Source: a virus. Taken from it: a stretch of 64,000 nt of DNA. Shown here in pieces: positions 53,395 to 63,057 of the stretch. The stretch is from IMG/VR virus record IMGVR_UViG_3300025158_000005; one strand, given 5' to 3'. The notes below the pieces were generated by a model that saw nothing but the letters and a program-made list of their open reading frames with translations, was not told the origin of the DNA and ran no database searches. Position numbers and translations under genes: made by a program. How positions within the stretch are numbered: position 1 is the stretch's first letter; every line of letters starts with the position of its first letter.

Positions 53395-53492
53395 TGGATT
53401 GTTTCTTCTTTGTGTTTGTATTGATTTTTTGTGGTCGCACTGATCGCCTATGCTGAGTTTAAATTTTTTGGATGGATTTGACGAGAAATAAC

Positions 53493-54260
53493 ATGGAACA
53501 TATCAAGTTTCCTTCTATTGGGCAATTTCGTAATGTAATCAAGGAAGTGCGGTTCTTTCATAAGAACGAGACTTTGCCTACCTTGAAGTTTCGTGGTACG
53601 GTTAAGTTACACGGTACTAACGCGGCCGTTGCTAGGGTTAGCGGTGAACAGTGGTTTCAGTCTCGTTCCAACATTATCAAGGCGGAAGGTCCTGACAATG
53701 CTGGCTTTGCATTCTGGGCAGACGGTATTGACTGGAATCAATTCTTTAACCAGATTCCCGCTAACGAATGTGTAATCTTCGGCGAGTGGTGCGGTGGTAA
53801 CATTCAGTCTGGAGTTGCTATCAACGGGCTGCCTAAGATGTTTGTTATCTTCAAGATTCTGGCGGATGGCGTATGGTTGAACATGGACCAATACTCTTTC
53901 ATTCAACGTCCTGACTTGAACATTTACAACATCAACAATTTCCCTATGTGGGAAATTGATATTGACTTCAACGTTCCTGCTCCTGCTCAAAACAAGTTGA
54001 ACGAGATTACTGAAGCAGTCGAAAACGAGTGTCCTGTTGGTAAGGCATTCGGCAAGATCGGCATCGGCGAAGGTGTCGTATGGACGTGTGTTACTCCGGG
54101 ATACAACTCGCCCAGTTTAGTGTTCAAGGTGAAGGGCGAACGTCATGTTGGAGGAACATGGATAGAGGGTATTGATTTGCCAAGTGAGGACAGACAAAAG
54201 GTAATAAATTTTTGTCTTGCCAATAAAATCAATGAATTTGATTTTGAGTTTTTGGAATAA
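53493..54260 (+). CDS. Rnl2-family RNA ligase, N-terminal adenylyltransferase fragment
   Basis: Motif I KLHGTN, GEW, EGVV and motif V KVK, followed by a 38-aa non-ligase tail. Confidence 0.85.
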   Translation: MEHIKFPSIGQFRNVIKEVRFFHKNETLPTLKFRGTVKLHGTNAAVARVSGEQWFQSRSNIIKAEGPDNAGFAFWADGIDWNQFFNQIPANECVIFGEWCGGNIQSGVAINGLPKMFVIFKILADGVWLNMDQYSFIQRPDLNIYNINNFPMWEIDIDFNVPAPAQNKLNEITEAVENECPVGKAFGKIGIGEGVVWTCVTPGYNSPSLVFKVKGERHVGGTWIEGIDLPSEDRQKVINFCLANKINEFDFEFLE

Positions 54261-54999
54261 ACGAAAATCCATCAACTTCATTCTTACAGTATTTTATTAT
54301 CAAATATCTGGATAACTTGTCAACATTCTTATCACTATTAGAAGCATCGTTTGGGGTGTAAAAACTCCCAAATGGTGTTTTGTAGATGCCATCAGAGATT
54401 GATCTTTTGTGATTTGATATATGTTCCTGTGTCTTGGGTCTTGGAATATTTAACCACCTATTTCGTAAGTCAGTCATACCACTTTCAGTAAAGAACGACT
54501 TAAAATCAACACCTTTCATTCTGTCAGATTGATTTTGTTTGAATGTTTTTCCTTCCTCCGTAAGAAGAAATACTTTCCATTTATCTTTTGCTCTGTCCTT
54601 TATCGTCTGATTATGCATTGGGTTGTTTATAGTCATAGATAGTATGTTTGCCATTCTAGCAGATTCATATATTCTAGAATTGTAATATACATCGTTATGT
54701 GTTTTACTTCTATCGCGCATTCTACTGAATGCTTTTAACATGGACGATTTGTGTTTTATATTAGTAAATACCTTGGATAGTATCCAATGTGCTATAAAAT
54801 GTTCTCTATGGGTTAGCTTTATCACGTTCCATGGATGTTCTTTTATGTTTGAAAACTGAGGAAACATATATTTACTTTTAGGACATATGTGATGATTGTC
54901 CCCTTTAATAGAGTCTTTATTTCTGCTTTCGATAAATCTTATATATCTGGATAGATAGTGTTGATTGTGAGGTAATGTTTCTAAAATAGACTTGTACAT
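54229..54999 (-). mobile_element. MobE-like HNH homing endonuclease, antisense inside the RNA ligase locus
   Basis: HHICPK...LTHREHFIAHWIL, NNPM, NUMOD3-like KTQEH; AGGAGA RBS and TATAAACA upstream. Confidence 0.85.
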
Positions 55000-55051
55000 A
55001 ATTGTCTCCTATGATATTATGTTTATACAAATTTTTAAGGTTAAAAGAGAA

Positions 55052-55444
55052 ATGCTTAAAATTATTTCAAACGGTAAAGAGTACGAAGTTGATGTGAATC
55101 ATGTTAAGAACTCTGCAAAATCTGGTAATGCTAAAATCCATGGAAAATCCAAGGTCAAGACTCTTGCTGCTGTTGATACCGAGAAGGTTGCATCTATTCA
55201 GGAATTCATTGAAAACGTGGTTACCGAGTCACGTCTAAATCAAGGTATTGACTACCTGAAGGAACAGAATCAACCGTTGAATCAAACTTCTACTGGCATC
55301 TTCTTGAAGTGGATCGTCGGTGACGTAATCAAGGAAGAATCTGACACTATGCGTGACTCTTTGATTGAGCCGAAGGATGTAAACGGCTCAATTTCTAAGA
55401 AGGCACGTGAATGGTACTTTTCTCAAGTATTCACTTGGCAATAA
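55052..55444 (+). CDS. RNA ligase C-terminal domain fragment
   Basis: SKVKTLAAVD.EKV.SI.EF....VTE.RL.QG...F.KWI..DV.KEE pattern. Confidence 0.8.
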   Translation: MLKIISNGKEYEVDVNHVKNSAKSGNAKIHGKSKVKTLAAVDTEKVASIQEFIENVVTESRLNQGIDYLKEQNQPLNQTSTGIFLKWIVGDVIKEESDTMRDSLIEPKDVNGSISKKAREWYFSQVFTWQ

Positions 55445-60991: not shown

Positions 60992-61960
60992 ATGAACTTA
61001 CTAGAACGCATGACGAAAGCGGGAAATATCGCAGCAGGAACACTATCAACGTCTGTCCTATTCAATGACAAGGACATGATCCCAACCGAAATACCCATCA
61101 TGAACATTGCCCTTGCGGGAAAACTAGATGGAGGTCTAGTTCCTGGTCTAACGGTAATCGCCGGTCCATCAAAACACTTCAAGTCTCTCATGTCTTTGAT
61201 TATGGTTAAAGCTTATATGAAAAAGTATGAAGATGCAATCTGTTTATTTTATGACTCTGAATTTGGTATTACGCCCGAGTATATCAAAGCACAAGGTATT
61301 GACGCAGATCGTGTTTTGCATATCCCCGTTGAACATATCGAACAACTGAAGTTTGACTTGGCTCAACGGCTGGAAGAAATCAAGCGCAACGACCACGTTA
61401 TCATCTTCATTGATTCCGTCGGAAATCTTGCATCCAAGAAGGAAGTAGAAGACGCGAAGAATGAAAATTCTGCTGCTGACATGACACGTGCAAAAGCCAT
61501 GAAGTCATTGTTCCGTATCGTGACTCCACATCTGACGACCCGTGATATTCCATGTATTGTGGTAAATCATACATATCAAACACAAGAAATGTATTCTAAG
61601 ACTGTTGTAAGTGGGGGTTGTATGGTTGCTGACACAAAAATCCACACACTACAAGGTCTAAAAGCTATTCAAGATATTGCAAGAGGTGATATTGTATCAA
61701 CTCTTGAAGGCGAAAAGATGGTTACTCACACCTGGAATCCAGATACTCTTGAAGACGGCGAACCTGAGTGTTATGAAATAGAATTTGAAGATGGTTATGT
61801 CTGTACTGTTTCTGAAACCCATCCATTTTTAACTAAATCTGGGTGGATAACTGCAGATCAACTAACAGTTGGAAGTGAAGTGTCAAAAGTAATAAATACC
61901 TGTATCAATAATAACGAACAGGTATTTATTAATGAACATAGTCTATCTAATACAATTTAA
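60992..61960 (+). CDS. uvsX: UvsX recombinase N-extein plus split intein N half
   Basis: GPSKHFKS, YDSEFG, IDSVGNLAS and VVSGG, then CMVADTKI (Cys210) with block B SETH. Confidence 0.92.
   Translation: MNLLERMTKAGNIAAGTLSTSVLFNDKDMIPTEIPIMNIALAGKLDGGLVPGLTVIAGPSKHFKSLMSLIMVKAYMKKYEDAICLFYDSEFGITPEYIKAQGIDADRVLHIPVEHIEQLKFDLAQRLEEIKRNDHVIIFIDSVGNLASKKEVEDAKNENSAADMTRAKAMKSLFRIVTPHLTTRDIPCIVVNHTYQTQEMYSKTVVSGGCMVADTKIHTLQGLKAIQDIARGDIVSTLEGEKMVTHTWNPDTLEDGEPECYEIEFEDGYVCTVSETHPFLTKSGWITADQLTVGSEVSKVINTCINNNEQVFINEHSLSNTI
61891..61930 (+). promoter_or_regulatory. 13-bp perfect hairpin containing a late promoter and covering the endonuclease RBS
   Basis: AATAAATACCTGT-N14-ACAGGTATTTATT immediately before ATG 61932. 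Confidence 0.75.
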
Positions 61961-62585
61961 TATAGATACGCTACCAAACAAATATATCGGCAGTAAATCT
62001 AACTGTAGTGTAGTTAACAATAAAATTTTAAATTCAAGAGGAAAAGAATATTGTGGTTCATCGGCTGATAAAGTATTCAAACAGTTAGTAGAATCATTAA
62101 TTCCATATGAAGTTAAAGTTTTAGGTACATTTGAATCATATTCTGATGCGTTGATAGCTGAGAGAGATATTCAGATAAACTACGATGTAGTTGCTAGTGT
62201 AGAATTTTTTAATAAATCTATAGCAACATTTTCATCATTCGCTGATCCCAGTTATGCCACATATAAGCATGTTGTAACGGATAAATGTGTTAGATTAAAA
62301 CGAGATCATCCTAAAGTGTTATCTGGGGAATATGCTGGTGTTTCTAAAGGAACAATCCTATCAGAGGATGAACGAAAGAAAAGAGGAAGAAGCGGTATAG
62401 AAAATGGGTTTTATGGAAAAACACATTCCGCTGAAACCAAATCATTATGCGGAAAGAAAATAGGAGATTCACACCGTGGTAAACCAAAAACAGATGAACA
62501 AAGACGAAAAATGTCCGAAGCAAGAAAATTGTGGTGGATTAATCGTAAAAAGAGTAACGAAAGTCGGCAAACAGAAAGTGTATGA
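61932..62585 (+). mobile_element. Free-standing GIY-YIG (Seg-like) homing endonuclease with NUMOD3 repeats
   Basis: IVY...YIG...YCGSS, FFNK, FYGKTHS.ETK and KT.EQRRKMSEA motifs. Confidence 0.85.
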
Positions 62586-63057
62586 TATTACTGTAGCTGA
62601 TAACCACCATTATATTCTAGAAAATGGTGTTGTCTGTCACAATACTGGAATTTACTACTCAGCGAATGCCATTTGGATCATTGGGCGATCACAAGAAAAA
62701 GAAGGTACGGAAGTCGTTGGCTATAACTTTACGATCAATATTGAGAAGTCTAGATACGTTAAGGAAAAGATGAAGTGCCCGTTTACAGTCACATTTGATG
62801 GTGGTATCAATAGGTGGTCTGGTCTAATGGATATTGCTCTCGAAACTGGGCATTGCACGAAACCCAAGAACGGATGGTATCAACGCCAGGGCGACGAAAA
62901 GAACTATCGACTGGCAGACACAAATTGTAAAGAGTTTTGGATTCCAGTCTTGACCGACAAGACTTTCCAGACGGCTGTTCAGCAAAAGTTTCAACTAGGT
63001 ACTGCCGCATTGATTCAAGAACATGCAGAGCACGTAGACCATGATGGAGAAGCATAA
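62476..63057 (+). CDS. uvsX: Split intein C half plus UvsX C-extein
   Basis: VYDITVADNHHYILENGVVCHN|TGIYYSANAIW..IEKSRYVKEK; AGGAG 9 nt before the GTG. Confidence 0.9.
   Translation: MVNQKQMNKDEKCPKQENCGGLIVKRVTKVGKQKVYDITVADNHHYILENGVVCHNTGIYYSANAIWIIGRSQEKEGTEVVGYNFTINIEKSRYVKEKMKCPFTVTFDGGINRWSGLMDIALETGHCTKPKNGWYQRQGDEKNYRLADTNCKEFWIPVLTDKTFQTAVQQKFQLGTAALIQEHAEHVDHDGEA

Follow-up and report, generated by a model that had tools for sequence, protein, structure and literature searches.

Homing endonucleases usually spare their hosts by being hidden in self-splicing introns or inteins, or by being placed between genes. To our knowledge there are few cases in which a gene interrupted by a free-standing endonuclease has kept its function. 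Among phages, split genes include nrdA-a/mobE/nrdA-b of Aeh1, gene 39/60 with mobA of T4, and gene 43A/43B with a seg endonuclease of phage 25, of which the split nrdA and the split gene 43 provide precedents for two-chain enzymes (PMC2988022). In a further class, termed "fractured genes", the halves are fused to the halves of a split intein with a free-standing endonuclease gene between them (Dassa et al. 2009; PMC2677866). Here we describe a locus within a 64,000-nucleotide stretch of viral DNA (IMG/VR virus record IMGVR_UViG_3300025158_000005; the whole stretch is hereafter called the window) in which a gene for an RNA ligase of the RNA ligase 2 (Rnl2) type is split just after its motif V by a cassette carrying an HNH homing endonuclease gene. 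The best explanation, with a probability of roughly 0.6, is that a mobile HNH cassette splits the ligase and that the two chains re-associate, most likely through a tail and a leader peptide added to them by the cassette.

The locus resembles nrdA of Aeh1 in having a free-standing homing endonuclease in critical coding DNA of a T4-like phage gene, with no intron or intein, and in the conversion of that gene into two cistrons whose products must reassemble in Aeh1 (PMC2988022) and would presumably do so here. It differs from Aeh1 nrdA in its host gene, an RNA ligase, in the antisense orientation of its endonuclease, in its duplicated target motif, in its conserved and selected tail and leader, and in the use of the same codon in many diverged ligases with evidence of recent transfer. 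As in other "genes in pieces", the gene is contiguous in relatives, is split by a free-standing endonuclease, and leaves two halves that are both translatable open reading frames (ORFs). A full-text literature search of a limited collection found no report of a split RNA ligase 2. Coordinates of the features are collected in Table 1, where selection is given as pN/pS, the ratio of the proportions of non-synonymous (pN) and synonymous (pS) differences, or as dN/dS, the corresponding ratio of substitution rates.

Table 1 Features of the split RNA ligase locus, in coordinates of the window
Feature	Position	Strand	Description
Ligase N fragment	53493..54260	+	Nucleotidyltransferase domain of 218 residues (motifs I-V), 37-residue cassette tail, stop
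Motif V coding sequence (F-K-V-K-G-E)	54123..54139	+	Left repeat copy; left edge of the tract of high identity to L013
Inserted cassette	54147..55141		995 nt relative to uninterrupted genes; after a His codon, before GKS-KVK
N-fragment tail	54147..54260	+	37 codons and stop; final 32 nt shared with the 3' end of the HNH gene; conserved in 14 N fragments
HNH homing endonuclease	54229..54999	-	Intact, 256 residues, antisense to the ligase; PHROG 655, E 2e-22
HNH expression signals	55005..55027	-	AGGAGA at 55010..55005; T4-late-like -10 element TATAAACA at 55027..55020
Second in-frame motif V copy (F-K-V-K-R-E)	55034..55050	+	1 nt before the ATG of the C fragment; Shine-Dalgarno region
Ligase C fragment	55052..55444	+	Leader, linker GKSKVK..., all-helical C-terminal domain, stop; pN/pS 0.18-0.33
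C-fragment leader	55052..55141	+	30 codons; conserved in at least 7 loci; dN/dS 0.16-0.21

Of the 341 positions in the profile of PHROG 548, "RNA ligase", 1-233 align with the N fragment and 237-339 with the C fragment, and PF09414 matches the N fragment with an E-value of 1e-13 and 52.2 bits against a Pfam cut-off of 27. Nucleotidyltransferase motifs I (KxHGxN), IV (EGxV) and V (FKxK) are present, as in Rnl2-type enzymes, and residues K38, H40, G41, N43, E193, G194, K212 and K214 are invariant or nearly so. Within the N ORF, for which an alternative open ATG is available at 53472, the sequence FKVKGERH lies near the end and is followed by 37 more residues. The C ORF begins at the ATG at 55052 in a different frame, 792 nt from the N ORF. 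Both Rnl2 domains are thus encoded by two ORFs in different frames rather than carried on one polypeptide. An earlier note on this DNA, made from the letters alone, had the N part ending at motif V and the C part following about 1 kb downstream in another frame, and the ORFs are as it described. A terminator-like hairpin within the N fragment (53958..53936, - strand) was dismissed, being unconserved and within chance expectation.

Structural comparison leads to the same family. Searched against solved structures, a profile of the N fragments matched only T4 Rnl2 (1S68/2HVQ, E 1e-10). The AlphaFold2 (AF2) model of this fragment has a mean predicted local distance difference test (pLDDT) score of 91.8, and its residues 1-218/221 superpose on residues 0-231/234 of T4 Rnl2 (2hvq) with a VIA Z of 16.2; the top structural match is the trypanosome ligase REL1. 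The C-fragment model contains a confident helical domain at residues 43-128, and residues 42-130 superpose on residues 247-334 of T4 Rnl2 (2hvr) with a VIA Z of 8.3 and a root-mean-square deviation of 2.7 over 85 residues. This match is the top one for the C domain, yet it stands only about 1 Z unit above unrelated helical proteins, and by Foldseek alone it is weak (E 0.6). These model superpositions agree with the view of the earlier note that the ligase is split at its domain linker. The cut therefore lies in the short stretch that separates the motif V strand from the C domain; the N fragment carries all motifs and the C fragment the whole C domain. The locus shares with T4 Rnl2 (1S68, 2HVQ, 2HVR) the nucleotidyltransferase fold and motifs and an all-helical C domain, the split falling between two experimentally separable domains, but differs from it in having ~16% sequence identity and two polypeptides. 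The trypanosome RNA-editing ligases REL1 and REL2 with KREPA partners also combine an Rnl2-family catalytic domain with a nucleic-acid-binding module in trans; there, however, the trans module is an OB fold of a different protein and not the ligase's own C domain (PMC3413154). Two other sequence searches were negative: phmmer with the N fragment and the HNH protein against PDB sequences gave no match, and megablast against GenBank phages gave no close relative.

Boundaries of the insert were defined from a junction alignment of 12 unsplit and 7 split loci. In the 12 unsplit metagenomic loci the end of the N core and the start of the C core are separated by 9 nt, or three codons in the arrangement H-xxx-KVK. 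In tblastn comparisons, residue 218 of the N fragment and residue 30 of the C fragment fall on one and the same His codon in homologues from cultured phages, whose ligase genes are therefore contiguous. Alignment with uninterrupted homologues, which the earlier note had proposed as a check, fixes the insert at the positions in Table 1, where relatives are unsplit, and agrees with the length of 995 nt given in that note. GC content falls from ~0.45 to ~0.30 across the insert. The short direct repeats reported earlier can be found: dropping the 995 nt between the CATG copies at 54144 and 55139 gives an in-frame ...GERH-GKS-KVK..., and TCATGTT occurs at 54143 and 55099, but a rejoin at the latter pair is backed by no homologue. 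Both repeats are probably incidental because they are not conserved in other cassette copies. Codons at the junction also vary among alleles, with GE(R/A)H ... GKS-KVK in those bearing the cassette (SS-KV in L018) and GEKH-SxS-KVK in most that are uninterrupted. The closest uninterrupted relative, L020, has an unusual FKAKGSLH-SAT-RTK, which may be a cleavage-resistant site.

The cassette is conserved and appears to have been mobile recently, a feature missed in the earlier note. A protein search with the N fragment returned short N fragments that are 45-74% identical and have a common end point and a similar tail of 37-38 residues; the N fragment is present on 63 contigs. The same cassette of about 1 kb occupies the same codon in at least eight further distinct phage loci with differing phage backgrounds (L012/L026, L013, L014, L015, L016, L018/L025, L027 and L028), whose ligases are ~50% identical. 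Their layout consists of a tail, an antisense ORF of 253-256 residues whose 3' end is overlapped by the tail by 23-32 nt, a spacer of 22-64 nt, and a C fragment with a leader of ~30 residues. The ligase is uninterrupted in 11 of 12 IMG/VR relatives. In keeping with a homing element, the 12 unsplit and at least nine split loci share one codon boundary, and the element is more alike than its flanks. This is seen with the syntenic T4-like contig L013, where the clamp-loader, regA and ligase exons show 60-70% nucleotide identity to the window and positions 54123-55159 show ~98% (20 mismatches in ~1 kb), with identity dropping again right after. Synonymous differences between the two follow the same pattern (pS 0.028 in the HNH gene, ~0.7 in the ligase exons), the mark of a cassette that was transferred laterally not long ago, with very short co-converted stretches on either side. 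Other comparisons likewise show the cassette to be more conserved than its ligase; between L015 and L028, for example, the HNH is 86% and the N core 67% identical.

Other lineages appear to have carried the cassette for longer. Within the group formed by L014, L015 and L012, pS is ~0.6 in the cassette and 0.5-0.75 in the exons, and these loci therefore probably diverged with the cassette in place. Core pN/pS in this group is 0.18-0.30 for the C core and 0.24 for the N core, and low values combined with comparable pS indicate that both halves were maintained while split. Neither half contains a stop or a frameshift in at least nine diverged loci, extending to the relatives what the earlier note had seen in the window. 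Purifying selection on both halves argues for a two-chain enzyme. The interpretation of the earlier note is thus supported in part: evolutionary evidence favours its two-chain reading, whereas the repeats it invoked lack conservation.

The same observations speak against the reading that the ligase is a dead gene decaying after endonuclease invasion, which we consider the least probable of all. One split N fragment of type 1, the cassette type of the window, has a degenerate motif V (P0157, 279 residues; FKSVGEKF) in which the second lysine and the His are lost, and the missing lysine would fit such decay. All motifs are intact in the window, however, the N fragment is spread over the many contigs noted above, both reading frames are preserved across the diverged loci, and pN/pS is well below 1.

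The need for a C domain is understandable from T4 Rnl2, which without it forms ligase-AMP and seals pre-adenylylated nicks but cannot recognize and adenylylate a nick (PMC1807946). The C fragment is probably kept because the N domain alone is unable to perform these steps. The same experiments, in which the isolated N domain self-adenylylates, would be compatible with a reading in which only the N fragment matters, as a stand-alone adenylyltransferase or sealer of pre-adenylylated ends, with the C fragment serving another role or being dispensable, and every catalytic motif does sit in the N fragment. We nonetheless regard this reading as improbable, given that every lineage with the cassette retains an intact C core, that this core and the N core experience similar purifying selection, and that the cassette equips the C fragment with a conserved Shine-Dalgarno sequence, an ATG and a leader.

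Selection is also evident in the two peptides encoded by the cassette, which the earlier note overlooked. In the tail, within the group of L014, L015 and L012, pS is 0.5-0.8 and pN 0.03-0.06, dN/dS is 0.02-0.08, and 10-18 synonymous differences stand against 3-5 non-synonymous ones, also within the 27 codons that lie outside the HNH ORF. These values and those of the leader (Table 1) indicate that both peptides are translated and constrained as protein. The tail is net acidic in 14 of 14 cases and the leader net basic in five of six. For the tail, AF2 predicts a helix at residues 231-243 (pLDDT 72-83). The leader alignment was too variable to serve for a locus scan. A tail profile searched against 1.84 billion representative proteins matched only ligase N fragments, apart from three unrelated weak matches, and the cassette is therefore specific to this ligase site. 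We accordingly discarded the idea of the tail as a portable tag shared with other genes, as well as that of a tag shared with other cassette types, because hidden Markov models of type 1 miss the tail and leader of a second cassette type found in loci L029 and L030. The tail and leader were also compared with the neighbouring ligase, of which they might be diverged copies, with hhalign giving P of ~0.1-0.2 and an ungapped profile scan placing near-native offsets 2nd of 297 and 4th of 301, all scores being negative and the combined p ~0.05. For the tail, the protein Atlas listed a T4_Rnl2_C cluster at 0.90, a weak lead only.

The chief alternative to re-association through the tail and leader is a two-chain ligase that assembles with no help from the peptides. 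The halves would then meet via native domain contacts or on the nicked substrate, and the peptides would be conserved for surface capping, fragment stability, translation initiation, or a role of the endonuclease. No dedicated tag has been described for the split NrdA of Aeh1, which works nonetheless (PMC2988022), the model of the isolated N fragment shows the tail with moderate confidence, and the leader is poorly predicted, all of which suit such an arrangement. Set against this, the constraint on the tail (dN/dS) is very strong, more so than that on the ligase core, for which the pN/pS is uncorrected; tails are acidic throughout, and most leaders are basic; and the second, unrelated cassette type has a tail and leader of its own. 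On balance we judge assembly without the peptides unlikely, although it is the strongest competitor of the reading proposed here.

The earlier note had recognized no intron or intein at the locus, and Rfam, Pfam and the terminal residues of the peptides agree with it. A self-splicing intron was rejected after Rfam searches of both strands at E ≤ 10 yielded no intron and only two chance matches. Apart from the HNH gene, the insert consists of tail and leader coding sequence under purifying selection and a 52-nt spacer between the HNH gene and the leader, and because the DNA outside this spacer is coding and its synonymous change saturated, no room is left for a ribozyme core. An intein was likewise rejected: the tail starts with V or A and not with C, S or T, and the leader of the window ends in IH|G, with N|S found only in L018. 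Pfam contained no Hint or intein match at E ≤ 10 to whole fragments or to isolated tails and leaders, the protein Atlas gave no intein lead, and the tail and leader together comprise 67 residues, about half a HINT domain. By eye the leader resembles intein C halves and the tail resembles the N half of the uvsX intein, but these likenesses had no statistical support (best E 1.9). A true split intein (Cys1 ... VVCHN|T) interrupts the uvsX gene of the window (60992-63057), where a GIY-YIG-like ORF separates the halves.

These results make covalent rejoining, whether by translational bypass, by an unrecognized intron, or by a split intein of minimal or degenerate form that the tail and leader make up, very improbable in our view. 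The layout of half, endonuclease, half matches that of "fractured genes" (PMC2677866), a true split intein is present in the same window, and the leader of L018 ends ...IN|S; the likeness of the leader to intein C halves, by comparison, is by eye only. The sequence requirements of splicing are nevertheless those that the locus fails to show, in its DNA (no Rfam intron, coding throughout bar the spacer) as in its peptides (their terminal residues, their combined length and the lack of a Hint match). Likeness to "fractured genes" thus extends to the layout, to the provision by the element of a stop upstream and a Met downstream, and to the extra element-derived peptides on both halves. The difference is that the peptides here, of 37 and 30 residues, lack intein nucleophiles, bear no likeness to HINT domains and do not reach the length that a HINT fold needs, so that any rejoining would be non-covalent.

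The endonuclease itself is well preserved. It also matches PHROG 12434 (E 3e-10), gave no match to Pfam, retains HH(I/V)xPK, WN and H..IAH motifs that are invariant in seven HNH copies, and is under purifying selection (pN/pS 0.099/0.594). Its AGGAGA Shine-Dalgarno sequence lies 6 nt upstream of the HNH ATG. In L012, L013, L014, L015, L018, L027 and L028, the combination TATAAATA-N(4-25)-GGAGA occurs once per locus, always before the HNH gene, and nowhere else in ~190 kb of loci. TATAAATA is the T4 late-promoter consensus. Since the HNH gene is antisense and has its own signals, it could not be translated from the ligase mRNA; it appears to be set up for late antisense expression, with the timing suggested by the promoter type. 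Shut-off of the ligase by a late antisense transcript, as raised in the earlier note, is speculation. The earlier description of an intact, antisense, MobE-like HNH gene with its own ribosome-binding site and late-like promoter is borne out except for "MobE-like", a loose label given that the closest relative from a cultured phage, with 35% identity, is an HNH of a Rhizobium phage. This relative, EVB91_144 of Rhizobium phage RHph_I1_18, likewise runs antisense to a gene for RNA ligase 2, whose 3' end it overlaps, but it lies downstream of an intact ligase in an ordinary intergenic free-standing arrangement. The two genes are convergent with an 8-nt 3' overlap (L023:2489-4253; MN988519.1 83590-85354). 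This arrangement is possibly the ancestral free-standing state, and suggests that the cassette originated from an ordinary ligase-associated free-standing endonuclease.

Another element overlooked in the earlier note is the duplication of motif V directly before the ATG of the C fragment. A 17-nt codon-degenerate pattern for F-K-V-K-G/R-E occurs twice in the window, against 0.00 expected by chance, and relatives also carry two motif V copies, always 905 nt apart. The second copy holds a Shine-Dalgarno-like AAGG/AAAGG and adjoins the endonuclease promoter. This copy may have arisen by duplication of the target site, may be left over from an earlier allele, or may serve the endonuclease as an operator. 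If the two copies recombined, the product would be a single-chain ligase in which the leader forms an internal loop; a search for an endonuclease-less derivative of this form found none.

We propose the following scheme. A free-standing HNH cassette of ~1 kb, still mobile among T4-like and other environmental phages, has entered an Rnl2-type ligase gene directly behind the His codon downstream of motif V, where the linker to the C-terminal domain begins. The cassette limits its own damage by supplying, on the ligase strand, 37 codons and a stop to the upstream half, and a Shine-Dalgarno region (the motif V copy), an ATG and 30 codons to the downstream half. On the opposite strand it brings the endonuclease gene with a strong Shine-Dalgarno sequence and a T4-type late promoter, such that early ligase mRNA could not express the endonuclease. 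Two polypeptides would be made, a complete nucleotidyltransferase domain and a complete C domain, and their non-covalent re-association, most likely mediated by the acidic tail and by a leader that is basic in most cases, would restore nick recognition and nick adenylylation.

Several points weigh against this scheme. The analysis establishes the layout of the locus, the mobility of the cassette and the selection on both halves and both peptides; the binding of the chains, the part played by the tail and leader, the timing of the promoter and the activity of the enzyme are things that we infer. The leader folded alone is predicted with low confidence (AF2 pLDDT ~50, with a hairpin at residues 2-13), although such a result fits, as weak evidence, a segment that would fold on its partner. 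The leader of L016 is not basic, the promoter of the window (TATAAACA) is a one-mismatch variant of the consensus, and the degenerate motif V of P0157 implies that some lineages may have lost activity.

A more tentative extension, which we hold to be possible but short of probable, is that the tail and leader constitute a cassette-borne heterodimerization module, a splicing-free counterpart of a split intein, and that the motif V duplicate is an autoregulatory site bound by the endonuclease. Such a module would allow the endonuclease to invade DNA coding for the active site of a useful enzyme, which would go on functioning in the form of two chains.

Elsewhere this ligase family is split by the second, unrelated type of cassette (L029:1646-3959 and L030:1706-3971). 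In these loci the N fragment ends just before motif IV and has a novel tail of ~55 residues, followed by a sense-strand homing endonuclease of 319 residues (phrog_10820/314) and a C fragment in which a novel leader of ~28 residues precedes motif IV, motif V and the C domain. Between L029 and L030 both peptides of this type are conserved. In L030 the ligase is in three pieces (395-2488): piece 1 ends ...GTVKLHG and is followed by a canonical split-intein N half with a Cys start and a TEDHKF block, then by an ORF of 281 residues and by piece 2, which starts with an intein C half ending ...GILVHN|SNAA, while the non-intein cassette lies further downstream.

These observations add RNA ligase 2 as a new host enzyme for gene-splitting endonucleases. 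The cassette appears to have evolved its own repair kit, in which a stop and a start are combined with a ribosome-binding site and two peptides under selection. The locus also offers a defined target, the DNA of motif V, together with natural cassette-free alleles for work on a new HNH specificity. If the peptides are an association module, they would represent a third, non-covalent route by which selfish DNA neutralizes its own insertion, and possibly a small natural tag pair for split-protein engineering.

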